The position numbers and the translations under genes are program-made. A stretch of 58,672 nt of DNA from a virus. Its lineage: Duplodnaviria > Caudoviricetes. Where the stretch lies: positions 1-58,672 of IMG/VR virus record IMGVR_UViG_3300021440_000026. One strand, written 5' to 3'. Of the stretch, positions 6,358-26,198 are shown piece by piece (position 1 is the stretch's first letter; each line of letters begins with the position of its first letter). The notes under the pieces are model-generated. The model was not told the origin of the DNA. It ran no database searches and was given only the letters and a program-made list of their open reading frames with translations.

Positions 6358-8367
6358 ATGAGTTTTAATAACGTTTTTGGCGGATCGACGCTACAACCTT
6401 CCGATGTATCCTATCGCGCTGTATCGCTTACTGCTGACGTAACACTAGCATGGGCTGACGTAAGTACATCAAACACGGATTATGTTGCGCGTATTATGGA
6501 TGTTACGCCAACATTTGATCTGTTGTCAATTACAATGCCGCCTGCAAATCAAGTGTCGCAAGGATACGACATTTTATTTGTCAATAGAAGTTCTCGGCAG
6601 TTTTACGTCAAAAAAAATGATGGAACTGTAATTGCTTCAATTTCCGCTGGGCAAAGAATTTTAGTTTATATCAATGATAATTCCACAATTGCAGGCGGAT
6701 GGGATTCATTCTTGTATGGTGTTGGTACAAGTGAAATAATTGCCGCATCATTGGTAGGGCAAGGCATTGTAGGGCTTGGAACTGGGCTATCTATAGCTTT
6801 GGCACAGACTGAAATATTTTCTAACTATTCTGTAAACAAAACATCCGATAGGGCTAAATTATTGGTATGGAAGGGGGGCGTTGGAACGATGACATTACCT
6901 TTGTCATCTTCAACGTTTTACGGGTTTTTCTTTGAAGTTAGGAATGATGGCACGGGAATACTAACTGTCCAATGCTCAGGCGCAAACACCATTGATAATG
7001 GATTTTCAAGCATTGCATTGCAACCTTCCGAATCGTGCATCCTTCATGCAAATCAAGTATCAAAATGGTGCAGCGTCGGACGTGGAAGAAGCCAGCAATT
7101 TAATTTCACGCAACTAACAAAATCCGTAACTGGCGGGACAACTACTCTTACAAACACAGAGGCTGCAAATGTGTGCCAAAAGTACAGCGGCATACTCACA
7201 TCAAACCAAATCGTTGTTTTGCCACCAGTTGTTCAAGTTTATTACGTATCAAACAAGACAACAGGCGCATATTCATTTACAATGCAAACCCCAACCCCGG
7301 GAGATGTTGTTGTTATTCCGCAAAGCCAAAATGCAGTATTGTTCTGCGATGGCGTGAATGTGATCAATGCTTCGACGACTGTTTCTGGTATTGCTTCTTT
7401 ATTGCTTAGTGCTGGAAGTGCCGCAAATCCATCATTATCATTTTCAGCAAATCCAAATACTGGATTGTTTCAACTATTGGCAAACACTATAAGCGTTTCC
7501 GCTGGGGGTGTTGAGTCATTGCGAGCGACAGGGAGTGGATTATTAACAGTAGATGGGGCAGCAGCAACACCATCGCATTCTTTTATCAATAGCCCTGCAA
7601 CTGGCATGTATTCCCCTGCTGCTAATCAATGGGCTCTTTCATCCAATGGTGTGCAGAGCATTTTGGTCGATGCTAATGGACTAGCAACTATACAAACTAT
7701 TAGTTCTGCTAGCAGATTTTCTGATAGTGCTAGCATAACAAAGAAATTCCATTTTGTCTCTACTGGAATAACGGCAGGACAAGATAGATCAATTACAGTG
7801 CCAGATAAAGACATAATTTTGTCAACGCCATATGGCGATCTTTTGTCCTCTTATAGTGCTTCTGGTGATACTCAAGTTGATATAGAAGGAAATTTTAATT
7901 CTACTTATGATGTTTACACTTTAATTATAAACAATATTGTAATATCAAATGGCGGGTATATGAAATGCCGATTAAAAATTGGAGGAACATATCAAACAGC
8001 AAATTATGTATTTTACACTGATACATCCTCTGTTGGCTCTGGGTATTCATTTATAAATGCTAGCGCATTAAATAGCAATGCAATTTATCTTACTTCAGAT
8101 GGGGGCGCGCCATCTGCTGGGGATGCTACAAACACAATCATTACTATTTATAATCCATCAAGTACCTCATCAAAAAAAGGAATTGATTATAAAGGAAGCT
8201 CTTATAGAAATGGCAGTGGCGGAAATAAAGCTGAAGGGTTTGGAAGATATGAAAATTCAACATCAGCACTAACAGGGGTTAGAATATATTTTGCGCAACC
8301 AGATGATTCACTCGTAAGAAATATTTCTTCTGGTAATTTCCAATTATACGGATTGAGAAGGGTTTAA
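6358..8367 (+). CDS. Tail fibre / tail structural protein
   Basis: 669 aa Ser/Thr/Gly-rich; GSAANPSLSF / GAAATPSHSF repeats; C-terminal ISSGNFQLYG typical of fibre tips. Confidence 0.7.
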   Translation: MSFNNVFGGSTLQPSDVSYRAVSLTADVTLAWADVSTSNTDYVARIMDVTPTFDLLSITMPPANQVSQGYDILFVNRSSRQFYVKKNDGTVIASISAGQRILVYINDNSTIAGGWDSFLYGVGTSEIIAASLVGQGIVGLGTGLSIALAQTEIFSNYSVNKTSDRAKLLVWKGGVGTMTLPLSSSTFYGFFFEVRNDGTGILTVQCSGANTIDNGFSSIALQPSESCILHANQVSKWCSVGRGRSQQFNFTQLTKSVTGGTTTLTNTEAANVCQKYSGILTSNQIVVLPPVVQVYYVSNKTTGAYSFTMQTPTPGDVVVIPQSQNAVLFCDGVNVINASTTVSGIASLLLSAGSAANPSLSFSANPNTGLFQLLANTISVSAGGVESLRATGSGLLTVDGAAATPSHSFINSPATGMYSPAANQWALSSNGVQSILVDANGLATIQTISSASRFSDSASITKKFHFVSTGITAGQDRSITVPDKDIILSTPYGDLLSSYSASGDTQVDIEGNFNSTYDVYTLIINNIVISNGGYMKCRLKIGGTYQTANYVFYTDTSSVGSGYSFINASALNSNAIYLTSDGGAPSAGDATNTIITIYNPSSTSSKKGIDYKGSSYRNGSGGNKAEGFGRYENSTSALTGVRIYFAQPDDSLVRNISSGNFQLYGLRRV

Positions 8368-18726: not shown

Positions 18727-19304
18727 TGACCATTGCGTTAACCTTTTCCGAAATTCTTACGGCATTAAGCCTTTTGGGTGGCGGTCTTATAGCCCTTTGT
18801 GCATTTATGTGGAACCTTATTCGGACAGTTACAGCGGGACATGAAAGATGGATTGCTATTGAGACTTTTATAAAAGGAACAGAAGATGATAGAATTTTAA
18901 ATAAAAACTTGCTTGAGAAATTTGAAGGTCGTTTAGAAATACAAAACGACAGACTTTCTCAATTAGAAACACAAACCCATCAAAGATGGATAACGATTGA
19001 AAATTTTATGAAAGAGATCGTTAGCGATAGAATGACAAACAAGGATTTGTTTGAGAAATTTGAAGATCGGCTTGAACGTCAAAATGATAGACTTTCCCAG
19101 TTAGAAACGCAAACAATTACGCGAATTGAGATTCTCGAAACACTAAAAAGAACAGAGCAATTTTTCACTCAAATTGTTATGCAATTGCAATTTTTATCGA
19201 AAACCCCTATTAAAGTGGAATCGCCAGATTTGCAAAGTCCAATTCTAAAAAGACAAACGCAAATGGACGATAGAAGCCAAAATCGACGGGCAAATGACAA
19301 ATGA
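18723..19304 (+). CDS. Membrane protein with N-terminal TM helix and duplicated coiled coil (holin/antiholin candidate)
   Basis: Hydrophobic residues ~4-33; 46-aa tandem duplication; directly upstream of the endolysin. Confidence 0.5.
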   Translation: MMTIALTFSEILTALSLLGGGLIALCAFMWNLIRTVTAGHERWIAIETFIKGTEDDRILNKNLLEKFEGRLEIQNDRLSQLETQTHQRWITIENFMKEIVSDRMTNKDLFEKFEDRLERQNDRLSQLETQTITRIEILETLKRTEQFFTQIVMQLQFLSKTPIKVESPDLQSPILKRQTQMDDRSQNRRANDK

Positions 19305-19723
19305 ATTTTACCATTGATGAGCTAATTCACAGTGACACCGCACTGCGGAAGCGGATTGATAATACTCCTAGCGCAGAAGTGCTAGTGGGTTTAAATAGGC
19401 TTATTGGGCACCTTGAAAGCGTCCGCAGCATTCTTGGCGCACCAATGCGTATCACTAGCGGGTACCGTTGCAAAGAGCTAAATAAATTGATTGGCGGTGC
19501 AAAGGATAGTGCGCACATGCAAGGATGGGCGGCTGATTTTGTTTGCCCGCAGTTTGGCACGCCATTGGAAATTGTGAAGAAAATTGCAGCATCGGAACTT
19601 TTGTTCGATAAGCTAATACAAGAGGGAACTTGGGTTCATATCAGTTTTGCGCCAACATCGCGAAGAGAAGTGCTAACAGCACATTTTAACGGAAGCAGCA
19701 CAACATACACAAAGGGAATTTAA
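19301..19723 (+). CDS. Endolysin, peptidase M15A family
   Basis: ITSGYRCKELNKLIGGAKDSAHMQGWAAD and WVHIS zinc-binding motifs. Confidence 0.9.
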   Translation: MNFTIDELIHSDTALRKRIDNTPSAEVLVGLNRLIGHLESVRSILGAPMRITSGYRCKELNKLIGGAKDSAHMQGWAADFVCPQFGTPLEIVKKIAASELLFDKLIQEGTWVHISFAPTSRREVLTAHFNGSSTTYTKGI

Positions 19724-19725
19724 AT

Positions 19726-20034
19726 ATGAAGTACAGAAAAAAACCAGTAATAATTGATGCTATTCAATGGACAGGAAATAATACATTTCAGGTGCGATCA
19801 TTTCTTGATGGGCAAGAGCCTAATTTAAAATCTGCAACTGCTTCCGATCATTGGGAAAAGTATTGCGATTATGTTATGTTGCATGGCATTACTATCATGA
19901 CACTGGAAGATGGAAAAGATGGAAGGGCAAAGCATGTAGCGTCTGTTGGTGATTGGATTATCAAAGGAGTTGCTGGGGAATTTTACCCATGCAAGCCTGA
20001 TATTTTTGAGAAAACTTACGAGATTGCTGAATAG
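19726..20034 (+). CDS. Conserved phage protein (RKKPV...GEFYPCKPDIFEKTY family)
   Basis: Hallmark motifs of a widespread phage protein of unknown function. Confidence 0.8.
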   Translation: MKYRKKPVIIDAIQWTGNNTFQVRSFLDGQEPNLKSATASDHWEKYCDYVMLHGITIMTLEDGKDGRAKHVASVGDWIIKGVAGEFYPCKPDIFEKTYEIAE

Positions 20035-20035
20035 A

Positions 20036-20251
20036 ATGATGAAAAAACTACGTGGCGCGCGTCGTTCGTTCGTTGTTTGGTTTAACGGTGTTTTGTTGGC
20101 GGCGTTCCCTGTGTTTCAATCAGCGCATGATTATTTGCCAGAGCTACAGCAATACCTTCCTTCGGACGTTTACAAATGGGTAGGGCTTGCCGTGGTGATG
20201 GTGAATATCATGCTGCGCTTTAAAACTGACAAGCCACTTGAGGAAAAATAA
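20036..20251 (+). CDS. Putative holin
   Basis: 71 aa, two hydrophobic segments with charged ends, inside the lysis cassette. Confidence 0.6.
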   Translation: MMKKLRGARRSFVVWFNGVLLAAFPVFQSAHDYLPELQQYLPSDVYKWVGLAVVMVNIMLRFKTDKPLEEK

Positions 20252-20748
20252 TGTTTGAAATGCTGAAGCTAATCCCGCCACGCGGATATTTACTCCTTGC
20301 TGTAATCGGCTTATGCTTTGGATGCGAACTACACGGTCGGTATGTTGAAGCTAAAAAATGGGAAATACGGGAATCCGCTGCAACCGCGGCAGCAGAGCAA
20401 AAGCTATCCGACATGCGCAAGTACGTAGCCGAGAAAGAAAAAGCCGCTGAAAGCCGTTTGGCACTAATTAAAGCACAATTCAAACAAGGAGAAAATCATG
20501 CGCAAGCTGAAATTAAAACTCTTCGCGCTAATGTGCGCAATGGCACTGTCAGGCTGTCAATCCCCGCCGCTTCGTGTAGTCGAGGCACCGTTCCCGAAAC
20601 CACCGGAAATACCCAAGGAACTGCTACAGAAGCGCGAACCGAACTTGACCCAACGACTGCTCAATCTCTTATCGACATCGCCGCAGAAGGTGACGCAGCA
20701 ATCAGGCAATTAAATGCGCTGGTTGATGCTGTGAAAGATAATAAATAA
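20251..20748 (+). CDS. Rz: i-spanin (Rz-like)
   Basis: N-terminal TM, coiled coil, LRANVRNGTVRLSI..ELDP...EGDAAIRQLNAL motifs. Confidence 0.9.
   Translation: MFEMLKLIPPRGYLLLAVIGLCFGCELHGRYVEAKKWEIRESAATAAAEQKLSDMRKYVAEKEKAAESRLALIKAQFKQGENHAQAEIKTLRANVRNGTVRLSIPAASCSRGTVPETTGNTQGTATEARTELDPTTAQSLIDIAAEGDAAIRQLNALVDAVKDNK
20498..20713 (+). CDS. Rz1: o-spanin lipoprotein (Rz1-like), embedded in Rz
   Basis: Signal peptide with lipobox LSGC and Pro-rich tail; AAGGAG RBS; +1 frame inside Rz. Confidence 0.9.
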   Translation: MRKLKLKLFALMCAMALSGCQSPPLRVVEAPFPKPPEIPKELLQKREPNLTQRLLNLLSTSPQKVTQQSGN

Positions 20749-22339: not shown

Positions 22340-22414
22340 TGGTACGCCGCATAGGACTTGAAACTATACTCAATGAATTATGAGTTCACTGCTTTACCTT
22401 TAAGCTAACGGCGC
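22340..22414 (-). tRNA. tRNA with CAU anticodon (elongator Met or Ile2), CCA encoded
   Basis: GCGCCGT acceptor stem, GCTT/AAGC D arm, GTGAA-CTCATAA-TTCAT anticodon arm, TTCAAGT T loop, ACCA end; T.C mismatch at 53-61. Confidence 0.85.
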
Positions 22415-23064: not shown

Positions 23065-24339
23065 TCAACCCCATCCAAAATCATAAAGTTGTTGTTGTAA
23101 GTGCGCTTCTGCAACATTCACGGAATTCACGTCAGCCGTCACATTATCCAGCAAGTTTTCAGCAATTTGCATGTTGTTGTCTGCGCAAATAATCGAATTG
23201 TACGTGCTGACCGCCAGTTTATTCATGAACAGGCTTTGTGAACTTAATCCGCCTGCATCAGTGCCAGAATAATCCATCGTTGCGTTGATAATATCAACAA
23301 CGCATTCGCCAAACGATTTGTTTTGCAGATCATTTACCCAATGTTGCAATCCTGCCGCATCAGGCTCACGACCTAAAACGTTATGATAAAATGTTTTTAC
23401 AAGCTCCGATGCTTCAGCAGTAGACGGGTAGATTGCTTCCGCTTGATCGCAATTAGCCATCGCTTTCACTACGCCAGACAATGATGCACCAGAATCAATC
23501 AAATGTGCCCAGTAATCCATGCCAGACACTTCCGCAGCGCGATTGAACAACGAAACGTAGAACTTATTAACCCATACACGCGAATCAGTGTAGTGCATGT
23601 CGTATTTCTTGCCGTTAATTTCCATTCCTGTGATAATGTAAGCAGAATCAGTGGATGACATCGGATCAAGAATGCCGAACCCATGATCTCCCCACAGCTT
23701 ACCATCTGCAAATTTCCATTGATTTTCAATCACTGTATGACCACTAATCCAAGCCTCTGCGGCAACTGCATGCCGTCCGTATTCTGCATACTGACCTGTT
23801 GTGGATAAAGACGGATTATTCCAAATTTGGTCAGCAATCTGGCGGGTTTCGTGCATGAACTTCACATCGACATCAGCTTCAAGGATTGGGGTATATCCAG
23901 CTTGTAATGCAAATTTTGTCATCCACATTCTTTCCGAGGCAGAATCAGGGTTAAAATCGAGCATTTCCCACGACGTAATTTTAATATTAGGTGCATGGTC
24001 ATACAAGGATTTATCAGGCGCAACGTTGATGTGCTGCATATCCGTTGATGACCATTGCGATTCGTTTAAAAACCCTTTTTCGCCAGCTTGTAATGCAAAC
24101 TTTACAAACGACCCGCCATCGTTATTCTGCCCGCCAAACAGTGAACGGCTAGAATAGTAGTTCTCCAGCGCGGACAAATCCACTTTTGCGCCAGTTAGCC
24201 TATCAACGTACAGTTCTACGATGTTAGTCACAGCAAAGCCCGTACAGCTTCCCGCTTGCATTTGATCTTCAATTGCGCCAGTCCATGATCGATAATCCGC
24301 TGTCACTGTGTTAATGTAATTTTGTTTTTTAAATATCAA
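23065..24339 (-). CDS. Papain-like (C1) cysteine protease fused to a DUF4214/RsaA N-terminal-like domain
   Basis: DQMQAGSCTGFA (Gln/Cys), GRHAV (His), ENQW..WGDHGFG (Asn); C-terminal FYVSLFNRAAEVSGMDYW and FYHNVLGREPDAAGLQHW repeats; TTG start with AAGGGAG RBS. Confidence 0.85.
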   Translation of the reverse strand: MIFKKQNYINTVTADYRSWTGAIEDQMQAGSCTGFAVTNIVELYVDRLTGAKVDLSALENYYSSRSLFGGQNNDGGSFVKFALQAGEKGFLNESQWSSTDMQHINVAPDKSLYDHAPNIKITSWEMLDFNPDSASERMWMTKFALQAGYTPILEADVDVKFMHETRQIADQIWNNPSLSTTGQYAEYGRHAVAAEAWISGHTVIENQWKFADGKLWGDHGFGILDPMSSTDSAYIITGMEINGKKYDMHYTDSRVWVNKFYVSLFNRAAEVSGMDYWAHLIDSGASLSGVVKAMANCDQAEAIYPSTAEASELVKTFYHNVLGREPDAAGLQHWVNDLQNKSFGECVVDIINATMDYSGTDAGGLSSQSLFMNKLAVSTYNSIICADNNMQIAENLLDNVTADVNSVNVAEAHLQQQLYDFGWG

Positions 24340-24467
24340 AATTTCTCCCTTGTTTTATTATGCTACAATAATGAAGTCAGTTATTCCGTCCCGTATCCAG
24401 TCTGTAGAGTTGGCAAATACCGTGGATAACTGGCTTACTCATCTTTTCCTTCATGTTTAAGAAACTG

Positions 24468-24495
24468 ATTATACCACGCTAAAAAAATAGTTCAA
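24468..24495 (-). promoter_or_regulatory. Sigma70-type promoter upstream of the protease gene
   Basis: TTGAAC-16 nt-TATAAT with extended TG; 22 nt identical to 36774-36795. Confidence 0.65.
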
Positions 24496-24505
24496 GAAGA
24501 AAATA

Positions 24506-24985
24506 TTATCCTGTCTCTTTTTTGCAATCAGTGCCACGCATTTCATGGCAAGGCATCCCCATATAATCTTCTGCCCAGAATCGAATAATCCCATTTTCAA
24601 GATATGCACCATGCTTTGTTACCTGTTCTGGGTTTTTAAACTTCTTACATCTTCCTTGAAGAGGTGATGACCCGTGACGCTTTTCGTGCGGGACTCTTTC
24701 AAGGTGTTTGCAGGTATTGCAGTTTGCTTCATATTCGTTAAAAATTTTGACGCTTTCAATTCTTTTTTGCTTGTCCTCTGGCGCGCATAAAAATGTACCA
24801 CTAACTTGCGGAACAACGGCGCCAAGCAATATAGAATCATCAGCAGAGCTAACAATTTTTTTTGACCAAAAACTGACATACGTCAAATTGCCAAAATCAT
24901 CTGTGCACAGTAGTTTAGAAAGTATTTTCCGCCCTCTTTTTTCAAAAACCCTGTTATTGGTAACCCATTCTTTTTGAATGTACAT
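24506..24985 (-). CDS. Hypothetical protein with CxxC motif
   Basis: 159 aa, ANCNTCKHLER; co-oriented with neighbours. Confidence 0.6.
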   Translation of the reverse strand: MYIQKEWVTNNRVFEKRGRKILSKLLCTDDFGNLTYVSFWSKKIVSSADDSILLGAVVPQVSGTFLCAPEDKQKRIESVKIFNEYEANCNTCKHLERVPHEKRHGSSPLQGRCKKFKNPEQVTKHGAYLENGIIRFWAEDYMGMPCHEMRGTDCKKETG

Positions 24986-25730: not shown

Positions 25731-26198
25731 CTAGAACGGGACGTCGCCGCTAAAATCATCCAAATCTGAAAAATTCGGCGCAGGACGCGCAGCAGTACTT
25801 TCAGGCTGACTACGTGGCACAGATTGGCTACGTTGCTGCGGTGCAGGTTGCTCATCGCCGCGTGGCTTTCCGTCTAGCATTTGCATCCTATCTGCAATTA
25901 TTTTTGTCGAATACCGCTCAATTCCTTCCTTGTCAGTGTATTTTTCCGTTTTCATTCTGCCAGAAATAAACACTTTTGATCCTTTTTTAAGGTGCTCGCT
26001 ACAAATTTCCGCAAGTTTCCCAAAAACGGTAATATTTACCCATTCCGTTGCATCTTGCTTTACTCCACTTTTATCCTTCCATGTTGATCCAACTGCTATA
26101 GGAAAATTAGCAATTGCATCGCCACTAGGCATAAATCTACATTCAACATCTTTACCGAGATTGCCAATAAAATTACACTGATTAAGATCGTTTGCCAT
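25731..26198 (-). CDS. ssb: Single-stranded DNA-binding protein
   Basis: IGNLGKD, TEW..ITVFGKLAE, LKKGSKVFISGR, acidic DVPF tail. Confidence 0.97.
   Translation of the reverse strand: MANDLNQCNFIGNLGKDVECRFMPSGDAIANFPIAVGSTWKDKSGVKQDATEWVNITVFGKLAEICSEHLKKGSKVFISGRMKTEKYTDKEGIERYSTKIIADRMQMLDGKPRGDEQPAPQQRSQSVPRSQPESTAARPAPNFSDLDDFSGDVPF

Follow-up and report, generated by a model that had tools for sequence, protein, structure and literature searches.

We report that a gene on the minus strand of the phage genome analysed here (the window, i.e. the whole stretch of 58,672 nucleotides) encodes a divergent papain-fold peptidase (C1A, xylellain-type) with its catalytic set intact, which is fused at its C-terminal side to a module with two DUF4214 repeats. 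Strong purifying selection acts on each half of the protein and, judged from sequence comparisons, the fusion is an old family that is neither unique to the window phage nor a recent capture. Tentatively, and with somewhat less than even confidence, we read the product as an accessory protease that would be released at lysis and, by way of DUF4214, reach a betaproteobacterial host at its envelope or surface coat.

With 58.7 kb and genes for terminase, portal, tail fibre, endolysin and spanin, the window represents a complete virus record; this bears out the view taken in a first-pass annotation, made from the letters only, that we are dealing with a phage gene. The plus strand carries the structural genes and those for lysis, and the latter extend as far as 20748. 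The protease gene is located in a minus-strand, non-structural and early-type block together with an SSB gene (25731-26198), outside the late operon and, as that annotation had also noted, outside the virion module; 2.3 kb separate it from the spanin gene, with the two strands convergent. Its start codon is TTG (Table 1), and the start position is shared with a 93%-identical phage copy (viral locus L001) and with the homologs P0002-P0004, where ATG or Met is found. The open reading frame is not a chance one since homologs with identities down to 25% keep the whole architecture and dN/dS relative to the L001 copy is 0.076, in both halves of the protein and at a dS of 0.42. Megablast with positions 1-25000 as query was without a match in the phage collection, nor did the window protein match any entry in PHROGs or NCBIfam, and PADLOC applied to this protein and four neighbouring ORFs was likewise without match. 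The terminase, used to search for the host, had one relative only (40% identity), in an unclassified Pseudomonadota MAG.

Table 1. Positions in the window of the fusion gene, its parts and the predicted upstream signals.
Feature	Position	Strand	Basis
Complete CDS, 424 aa plus stop (C1A peptidase fused to DUF4214 module)	23065..24339	-	ORF list, full-length homologs, AlphaFold2, dN/dS
Papain-fold (C1A, xylellain-type) peptidase domain, aa 1-247	23599..24339	-	Family profile vs PDB, PF00112 in relatives, Foldseek, conserved residues
All-helical C-terminal module, aa 248-424 (two DUF4214 repeats, helical extension with VTxD, terminal GWG)	23068..23598	-	Pfam, AlphaFold2, alignment to RTX N-termini
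DUF4214 repeat 1, core FYVSLFNRAAEVSGMDYW (aa 260-277)	23446..23607	-	PF13946, 30.9 bits, E 1.4e-8
DUF4214 repeat 2, core FYHNVLGREPDAAGLQHW (aa 317-334)	23320..23454	-	PF13946, 37.9 bits, E 9.7e-11
Shine-Dalgarno-like AAGGGAGA	24344..24351	-	Read from sequence; four bases 5' of the TTG start
Candidate sigma-70-like promoter, TTGAAC-16-TG-TATAAT	24468..24495	-	10/12 consensus matches; best site in 6-kb scan

The peptidase assignment is based on the family profile and the structure model, as the window protein alone gave no match to Pfam Peptidase_C1 (PF00112) at E≤1 and its own PDB match was weak (cathepsin V, E 0.036). Specifically, the family profile had xylellain (3ois_A) as its best PDB match, at E 8.4e-41, and PF00112 was matched by 30 of the 39 aligned family members at E≤0.01. 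The AlphaFold2 model of the full-length protein (pLDDT 92.9, pTM 0.91) had xylellain as its best Foldseek match in the PDB (E 8.2e-10), followed by cathepsins; there were 279 matches at E≤0.001 and among the matches listed all are C1 peptidases. The Gln/Cys/His/Asn set read in the first-pass annotation is present and conserved: Gln26 (24264-24262) and Cys32 (24246-24244) in the DQMQAGSC motif, His190 (23772-23770) in GRHAV, and Asn206 (23724-23722) in ENQW, which also holds Trp208 (all on the minus strand). These four catalytic residues follow the C1 order and, in alignments, coincide with the catalytic motifs of both xylellain and the cathepsins. In the 39-sequence alignment His190 is invariant and Gln26, Cys32, Asn206 and Trp208 are each at least 90% conserved; moreover, Cys32 is the sole cysteine of the peptidase domain. 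We predict that the peptidase is catalytically active.

Xylellain, the C1A protease of Xylella fastidiosa (PDB 3OIS), has the same Gln/Cys/His/Asn set and, like the window protein, is without a long papain-type propeptide, but it lacks the DUF4214 module; the window protein is also without even the short N-terminal "DxRDY" extension of many family members. According to a review (PMC10380794), "short bacterial xylellain-type" C1A peptidases have been acquired by Myoviridae and Siphoviridae. For uncultured Caudovirales, BFVD contains phage proteins with a papain fold (E 7e-15 to 1e-13) and, as separate entries, phage proteins with DUF4214 (e.g. A0A6J5LAR6, A0A6J5TCZ4 and A0A6J5MN99 from the two groups); among the 50 matches listed none is annotated with both C1 peptidase and DUF4214, and the best-covering of these 50 has a TMq of only 0.49 over 267 columns.

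For the C-terminal half, the earlier recognition of two DUF4214 repeats is upheld: Pfam DUF4214 (PF13946) matched the window protein in two stretches at E 9.1e-17 and 61.3 bits, against a gathering cut-off of 23.2 that both stretches exceed singly. With respect to the Pfam models named in the first-pass annotation, DUF4214 was hence found in the window protein itself and Peptidase_C1 in its relatives but not in the protein itself. The LDNVTAD tail corresponds to the conserved "VTxD" motif and belongs to the DUF4214 module, the model of which, computed for the module only, has a pLDDT of 97.1. Since the full-length model has a high pTM, the module is suggested to be packed on the protease and not tethered as a free anchor, and it may act as an exosite or regulator instead of an anchor. 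The annotated absence of a signal peptide and RTX repeats also stands: inspection by eye revealed no hydrophobic N-terminal leader in the window protein, in any of the 39 aligned family sequences or in the homologs encoded on chromosomes, and HemolysinCabind (RTX, PF00353) had no match in the window protein at E≤1.

As many as 13,783 cluster representatives matched the window protein, mostly via DUF4214. In other hits DUF4214 is fused to serralysin, M10, S8, V8-type and CAP domains. All 69 relatives on genome contigs match only from residue 242 onward; they are mostly from Burkholderiales or Rhodocyclales and match at the starts of ORFs. Counted over whole genomes, five genomes of this kind have 15, 36, 10, 2 and 20 module or DUF4214 matches. 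The bacterial module sequences begin at the initiator Met, and the proteins that they head are therefore without a Sec leader. Examples are the Burkholderiales RTX proteins of Undibacterium amnicola (2646 aa) and Limnohabitans sp. Rim11 (1229 aa), both of which carry HemolysinCabind repeats; here the N-terminal module is followed by RTX or beta-rich repeats, whereas in the window protein it is C-terminal to the protease. A unit of about 165 residues, including both repeats and the VTxD helix, is common end to end to these RTX N-termini and the window module (35-45% identity). In a tblastn search against phages the sole match was to gp15 of EBPR siphovirus 2, and it was confined to the DUF4214 part; Pfam detects DUF4214 only in gp15, despite its "protease" label.

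RsaA of Caulobacter is a leaderless, type I-secreted surface protein, the N-terminal helical domain of which anchors it to the O-antigen. The Burkholderiales RTX proteins share this layout (leaderless, with the module N-terminal), which we regard as an analogy only. The first-pass annotation had proposed that the module resembles the RsaA N-terminal domain, and this kinship was not supported: no RsaA chain was recovered among PDB sequences with the module profile A6 (E≤10) or in a single-sequence search, Pfam DUF4214 had no match in the Caulobacter vibrioides control genome, and no RsaA chain was present among the module Foldseek matches listed (top 50). Foldseek of the module model gave no match at E≤0.001, and the 42 rows listed within the top 50 are all phycobilisome linker domains or entries (best E 0.018, TM ≤0.49). 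Of the proposed S-layer-type anchor there remains the analogous layout, with the unit heading leaderless RTX proteins, and not a detected relationship to RsaA.

Besides the window protein, no fewer than 34 cluster representatives (50% identity) have the protease-DUF4214 architecture, and it occurs in nine viral contigs, the window included, so the remark that it is not known from phages was too strong. In Oxalobacteraceae, chromosomes of Massilia and Pseudoduganella also carry it, in tandem pairs. In the module tree 42 of 48 fusion modules fall in one clade with the window copy nested deep inside, and the smallest well-supported sets around the window (2, 3 and 6 rows) consist of fusions throughout; the proposed capture of a host-derived anchor was accordingly overstated. 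That we are dealing with a passenger gene, taken recently from a host and without a phage role, is extremely improbable. The non-phage neighbours of the Oxalobacteraceae chromosomal homologs (TypA/BipA, DUF3141 and a T2SSE ATPase) would fit such an origin, as would a family member named "C1 family peptidase [Paucimonas sp.]", but the low dN/dS between two phage copies given above speaks against it together with a gene GC content (43.6%) near that of the phage (40.2%). Moreover, the nearest tree relatives of the window copy are L001 and short metagenome contigs (P0002-P0004 and P0061) and not a named bacterial genome, and several viral contigs that are unrelated to one another have the same architecture.

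For the related-locus searches the smaller alignments A1 and A3 were used as queries. In the viral contigs L002 and L152 the gene is flanked on one side by tail-type or large tail-side genes and on the other by an endolysin gene. BLAST of the neighbours showed that it is directly followed by endolysin homologs in L002, L152 and L155, and directly preceded by tail-fibre-like genes in L152, L155 and L156. No conserved partner gene (e.g. for an inhibitor or immunity) was found beside the family members in the nine loci, where only endolysin and tail-fibre-type neighbours recur. The tail-side position might indicate an enzyme associated with the virion or the tail fibre, by which a protein coat would be cleared at adsorption, as depolymerases clear capsules, but we consider this very unlikely given that the protein comprises protease and module only, with no tail-attachment domain, that the window gene is outside the structural block and on the opposite strand, and that no PHROG structural family was matched.

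In L002 an integrase is encoded about 5 kb from the gene, which is at a typical cargo position. This relates to the alternative that the host type I system exports the protein from living infected cells, or from lysogens of temperate relatives, by means of a C-terminal signal located within the module or behind it; DUF4214 would then retain the protease on the surface, where receptors would be remodelled or removed, resulting in superinfection exclusion or lysogenic conversion. The protein is leaderless with DUF4214 at its C-terminal end, RTX proteins of about 640 residues exist in which the module is 20-30 residues from the C-terminus, and the extreme C-terminus, G-W-[GA], is conserved in the phage and Pseudoduganella copies. 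The gene has a strong promoter-like site of its own upstream (Table 1), but such sites are no commoner in the 6-kb scan than in shuffled sequence (15 found, 16.8 expected). No tyrosine integrase was found in the window phage, and its protein is devoid of RTX repeats; in addition, the RTX-DUF4214 modules form a clade separate from that of the protease fusions. Taken together we judge export of this kind to be quite unlikely.

An intracellular protease for host takeover has also to be weighed, and we regard it as unlikely. According to this alternative the protein stays in the cytoplasm and DUF4214 recognises substrates such as the N-terminal modules of nascent RTX proteins, which in type I secretion are the last part to exit; cleavage would then sever the host coat or shield ahead of its export, or degrade other proteins of the host. 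The lack of a leader in the 39 aligned members and the chromosomal homologs fits with this, as do the location among early-type genes near SSB, the tight packing of the module on the protease in the model, and a protease domain that has no need for disulfides, its catalytic cysteine being the only one. On the other hand, no intracellular substrate is indicated, and the endolysin-adjacent position in three other viral contigs agrees with a late or exterior role. Moreover, DUF4214 is on exported or extracellular proteins wherever it has been studied or annotated in the published sources consulted: DUF4214 proteins are present in a Serratia secretome, and a Dechloromonas DUF4214 protein, the gene of which adjoins an S-layer protein gene, is called extracellular.

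We know of no biochemically shown ligand of DUF4214. In the tentatively favoured reading, that of a protease directed to the host surface, an active and leaderless C1A cysteine peptidase would use the module of about 170 residues as a targeting or exosite unit. The module would direct it to the betaproteobacterial envelope, either to a surface glycan (e.g. LPS O-antigen) or to a coat of DUF4214-bearing proteins, and there surface proteins would be cleaved. Substrate and timing are inferred here, as is the targeting itself, which we base on the same module heading large Burkholderiales RTX proteins and tagging many others, mostly uncharacterised. A Sec leader is absent from the phage protein as well as from its homologs. 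Release at holin/endolysin/spanin lysis would be the likeliest way out, with export by the host type I system as an alternative route to the surface. The released protease could act on the cell that is lysing and on its neighbours and strip a protein coat that hinders the release or adsorption of progeny. Counted against this reading are the early-type block in which the gene is located, the absence of signal peptide and RTX repeats, the predicted packing of the module on the protease, and the leaderless Massilia and Pseudoduganella homologs, in view of which an intracellular role is conceivable.

LapG, a periplasmic cysteine protease, releases the RTX adhesin LapA by cutting its N-terminal retention module. 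The likeness to the window protein is one of concept only, a cysteine protease acting on the N-terminal anchor of a type I-secreted RTX surface protein; LapG belongs to another protease family, is periplasmic and host-encoded, and we claim no homology. Psh (PP_1794) is an RTX-DUF4214 "phage shielding" protein of Pseudomonas putida. According to a preprint it leaves the cell through a T1SS and confers protection from phages, which the authors interpret as receptor masking at the O-antigen, the O-antigen binding being based on in-silico modelling (bioRxiv 10.64898/2026.09.02.748959). The same authors list peptidases among the DUF4214 partner domains. As described there, Psh has its place of action on the cell surface, in the conflict between phage and host, and has DUF4214 in common with the window protein; it differs, by that description, in being a host defence protein of a gammaproteobacterium, with RTX repeats and no enzyme domain, whereas the window protein comes from a phage and carries a protease where Psh has RTX, and any export of it is hypothetical. 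A more specific proposal, which we consider rather improbable, is that the phage protease performs "coat-stripping". Betaproteobacterial hosts would be covered by type I-secreted DUF4214/RTX proteins, a class in which at least Psh masks phage receptors; the protease would home via its own DUF4214 to the surface ligand or coat shared with them and cleave the shield, thereby unmasking receptors for progeny or freeing progeny at lysis. The tandem copies in Oxalobacteraceae might then represent a cellular version that turns over or releases DUF4214-anchored surface proteins.

Should the surface reading be wrong, the gene would still count, as a clearly delimited and conserved case, among the phage xylellain-type C1A peptidases, which have been little studied. 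DUF4214 is very common yet uncharacterised, and one DUF4214-RTX protein has now been tied to phage-receptor shielding, as the 2026 preprint presents it. Finally, a phage protease with DUF4214 would provide a handle on the ligand of DUF4214 as well as on whether phages possess enzymes for the removal of protein coats.

The N-terminal half of the window protein is a papain-family peptidase. Searched alone against Pfam at E≤1 the protein matched DUF4214 and no peptidase family, and around the catalytic Cys it showed weak likeness to cathepsin V (E 0.036). In an exhaustive search, 13,783 of 1.84 billion representatives matched at E≤0.001, and among the best 150 of these, 34 proteins of 387-457 residues span both halves in one stretch; these were aligned with four closer homologs and the stored homolog P0005 (39 sequences). 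In this alignment His190 is invariant and Gln26, Cys32, Asn206 and Trp208 are ≥90% conserved, while Pfam Peptidase_C1 is matched by 30 and DUF4214 by all 39 members. The 39-sequence profile identified xylellain (3ois_A; E 8.4e-41) as the best PDB match, followed by ficin, cathepsins and papain, and the AlphaFold2 model of the full protein from the same alignment (pLDDT 92.9, pTM 0.91) returned xylellain on top in Foldseek (8.2e-10) with cathepsins next. Together with the catalytic codons, which were read directly from the DNA sequence, these data bear out the papain-like protease with an intact catalytic set proposed in the first-pass annotation. Papains secreted by eukaryotes typically carry disulfides, which are absent here because Cys32 is the sole cysteine of the protease domain. 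Acquisition of xylellain-type C1A peptidases by Caudoviricetes is noted in the part of a review available to us (PMC10380794).

With its 58,672 bases the window makes up a complete virus record, in which the genes for the large terminase, the portal, the tail fibre, an ejection protein, the endolysin and the Rz spanin are on the plus strand; the protease gene, which shares a minus-strand block with SSB, belongs to the phage but not to its virion module, in agreement with its initial placement. AAGGGAGA is found four bases 5' of its start codon; L001, a viral contig with a 93% identical copy, has ATG instead of TTG at the same position, and the start also aligns in the three closest metagenomic homologs. 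The protease gene and the lysis cassette converge on each other 2.3 kb apart, the former amid small unknown genes and a tRNA gene (see table). The best sigma-70-like site of the scanned region sits just upstream of it, in a scan where such sites were no commoner than in shuffled sequence. The gene just upstream (24506-24985, minus strand) encodes a 159-residue product with CxxC-type cysteines (…CNTCKHLE…GRCKKF…) and no match in PHROG or PADLOC; L001 has a 159-residue ORF (7355-7834) in the corresponding position, a likeness of length and position between unaligned sequences. An out-of-frame ORF (20498-20713) embedded in the lysis cassette (19301-20748, plus strand) opens with MRKLKLKLFALMCAMALSGC, which resembles a lipobox as in Rz1-type lipoproteins.

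Coordinates of the protease gene and selected neighbours in the window
Feature	Position	Strand	Remark
Protease-DUF4214 gene	23065..24339	-	424-aa ORF, TTG start
Endolysin (phrog_894)	19301-19723	+	lysis cassette
Rz-like spanin	20251-20748	+	lysis cassette
tRNA-Met (CAT)	22340-22414	-	same minus-strand block as the protease gene, ≈650 bases beyond its 3' end

Residues ≈248-424 form the C-terminal module, in which the expected DUF4214 repeats are indeed present: two score above the Pfam cut-off and are followed by a helical extension containing LDNVTAD. Modelled by itself the module is an all-helical domain (pLDDT 97.1), for which Foldseek found no PDB match at E≤0.001; phycobilisome linker domains ranked first on weak scores (E no lower than 0.018, TM no higher than 0.49). 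The first-pass annotation had likened this part to the N-terminal domain of Caulobacter RsaA. RsaA chains were not among the 50 top-ranked PDB folds, neither the module profile (E≤10) nor a single-sequence search of PDB sequences recovered RsaA, and Pfam DUF4214 had no match in the Caulobacter vibrioides control genome (one of 14 control genomes, Synechococcus elongatus, was matched). Since all of these searches were negative, the likeness is unsupported as homology. RsaA and the Burkholderiales RTX proteins share an analogous layout (leaderless, with an N-terminal helical unit and RTX repeats), not a homologous one by these tests. As to the extreme C-terminus, the window protein (23068-23082, minus strand) and the stored homolog P0002 end in ...DFGWG, both Pseudoduganella copies in ...MGWA, and the Massilia copies have ...DMGWM followed by 17 extra residues; this conserved end is a possible secretion or sorting signal.

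The full architecture is present in six viral contigs (the window, L001, L002, L152, L153 and L154), and three further viral loci (L155, L156, L194) have the C1 domain and two-repeat DUF4214 without the helical tail; the domain scan covered the six of 80 retained viral loci that match past residue 330, the other 74 matching in the protease part only. Viral C1 peptidase genes as such are common, with at least 417 relatives confirmed among the 585 pattern matches listed, giant-virus bins included, and among the matches listed loci L157-L231 match mostly in the protease part only. BFVD contains C1 peptidases as well as DUF4214 proteins from phages, and no protein among the 50 matches listed spans both domains. 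EBPR siphovirus 2 gp15 (JF412297.1; locus L234, 3915-5198) is deposited as a 'protease' and has DUF4214 at its N-terminus; no protease family was matched in Pfam at E≤1e-4, leaving that label without Pfam support. Only two of 79 distinct retained genome loci cover both halves, in Massilia rhizosphaerae and Pseudoduganella ginsengisoli, each with a tandem pair of fusion genes; among the Pfam-annotated ORFs within ≈6 kb are TypA/BipA, DUF3141 and a T2SSE ATPase but no phage-like gene. One metagenomic family member bears the name 'C1 family peptidase [Paucimonas sp.]'. The protease-DUF4214 architecture is a small family, rare and hitherto undescribed, that phages and Oxalobacteraceae have in common.

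Trees were computed from 140 modules: every module not at an N-terminus, every N-terminal one from the named loci and a random draw of 20 N-terminal ones from stored proteins; the remaining stored N-terminal modules were omitted and identical sequences merged. FastTree united 42 of the 48 protease-fusion modules in a single clade (local support 98), in which the window module is nested with L001, P0002, P0003, P0004 and P0061. An IQ-TREE quick search was concordant: the smallest well-supported sets with the window comprise 2, 3 and 6 rows, all fusions, and the fusion label requires 5 changes (shuffled mean 40). Between the window and L001 dN/dS is 0.076 overall (0.076 for one half and 0.074 for the other; dS 0.42), and the GC content of the gene is 43.6% compared with 40.2% for the window. 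Because of the tree nesting, the low dN/dS and a GC content near that of the phage, the gene is neither a recent capture from a host nor in decay. Phages and bacteria share this fusion, which is old; a recent, phage-specific capture is not supported.

In a scan with one genome per species, all 69 loci match residues 242 onward and nothing before, at 26-45% identity and often several per genome, mostly in Undibacterium, Noviherbaspirillum, Ramlibacter, Limnohabitans, Massilia and Azovibrio. The bacterial modules in the alignment start at the initiator Met followed by 'TFTLT...GTAGNDT'-type sequence, and module-bearing RTX proteins with HemolysinCabind repeats occur in Undibacterium amnicola (2646 residues) and Limnohabitans sp. 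Rim11 (1229 residues). Among stored proteins and locus ORFs (positions in the latter being approximate, from stop-to-stop frames) the full module is N-terminal in 112, C-terminal in 62, internal in 11 and present in several copies in 35; 50 of the 62 C-terminal modules sit behind a C1 domain. Partner domains of DUF4214 in other matches are serralysin or M10, S8, V8-type and CAP, and five Burkholderiales genomes have between 2 and 36 module or DUF4214 matches each. A targeting or anchoring unit shared among exported proteins would be expected to show this distribution.

Some Burkholderiales are strongly enriched in module and DUF4214 matches, which number 36 in Pseudoduganella ginsengisoli, 20 in Ramlibacter sp. 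WS9 and 15 in Massilia rhizosphaerae; one 5100-residue frame among the five genomes has at least seven tandem copies. Giant stored proteins (P0052-P0059, P0066-P0070 and others; 1,700-6,200 residues) carry 5-12 tandem copies of the whole ≈165-residue module, and P0052 (1679 residues) combines 11 DUF4214 stretches with an RHS repeat. A giant RTX gene with an N-terminal module has similar neighbours in two Undibacterium species and Limnohabitans (L006 2789-15839, L012 2636-15833, L026 2143-11666), namely genes for a FecR-domain protein, a CHASE2 adenylate/guanylate cyclase and a TPR protein. The similarity is by Pfam for L006 and L026 and by ORF sizes and order for L012; these neighbours are a possible regulatory unit of the RTX surface protein. 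Adjoining the Pseudoduganella tandem genes, a 570-residue protein (L073 8348-10060, minus strand) with a clear signal peptide, one DUF4214 and a remainder that is beta-helix-like by eye is, by its predicted features, a Sec-exported member of this domain class.

According to the portion of a preprint available to us (bioRxiv 10.64898/2026.09.02.748959), the RTX-DUF4214 protein Psh of Pseudomonas putida, exported by a restored T1SS, gives resistance to sixteen phages, which its authors read as receptor masking at the O-antigen. Partial texts also list DUF4214 proteins in a Serratia secretome and, in 'Ca. Dechloromonas occultata', a DUF4214 protein termed extracellular whose gene adjoins an S-layer protein gene. 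Export of the phage protease itself by the host T1SS is a main rival explanation that we regard as improbable. Of two papers retrieved on bacteriophages, papain-like cysteine proteases and S-layers, neither concerns such a phage enzyme, judging by title and abstract.

No Sec leader was seen by eye in any family member, the window protein included, as the first-pass annotation had stated; an intracellular role is the other main rival, and appears rather unlikely to us. In L002 two large ORFs precede the protease gene, which is followed by a phrog_6637 gene and an endolysin gene; in L152 its neighbours are tail-fibre-type genes on one side and a lipoprotein gene plus an endolysin gene on the other. 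Neighbour BLAST linked the endolysins encoded downstream in L002, L152 and L155 with one another, and likewise the tail-fibre-like genes upstream in L152, L155 and L156, and revealed no other recurrent partner gene among the family loci.

Finally, the fusion of a phage C1 peptidase to a DUF4214 module is confirmed by sequence, family profile, Pfam and structure model. The reading we tentatively prefer, short of calling it probable, is that of a predicted-active xylellain-type C1A peptidase which the DUF4214 module would direct to the envelope or protein coat of a betaproteobacterial host, and which would act most likely after release at lysis. At its boldest, and with little likelihood in our estimate, the phage enzyme would strip DUF4214/RTX shields such as Psh.
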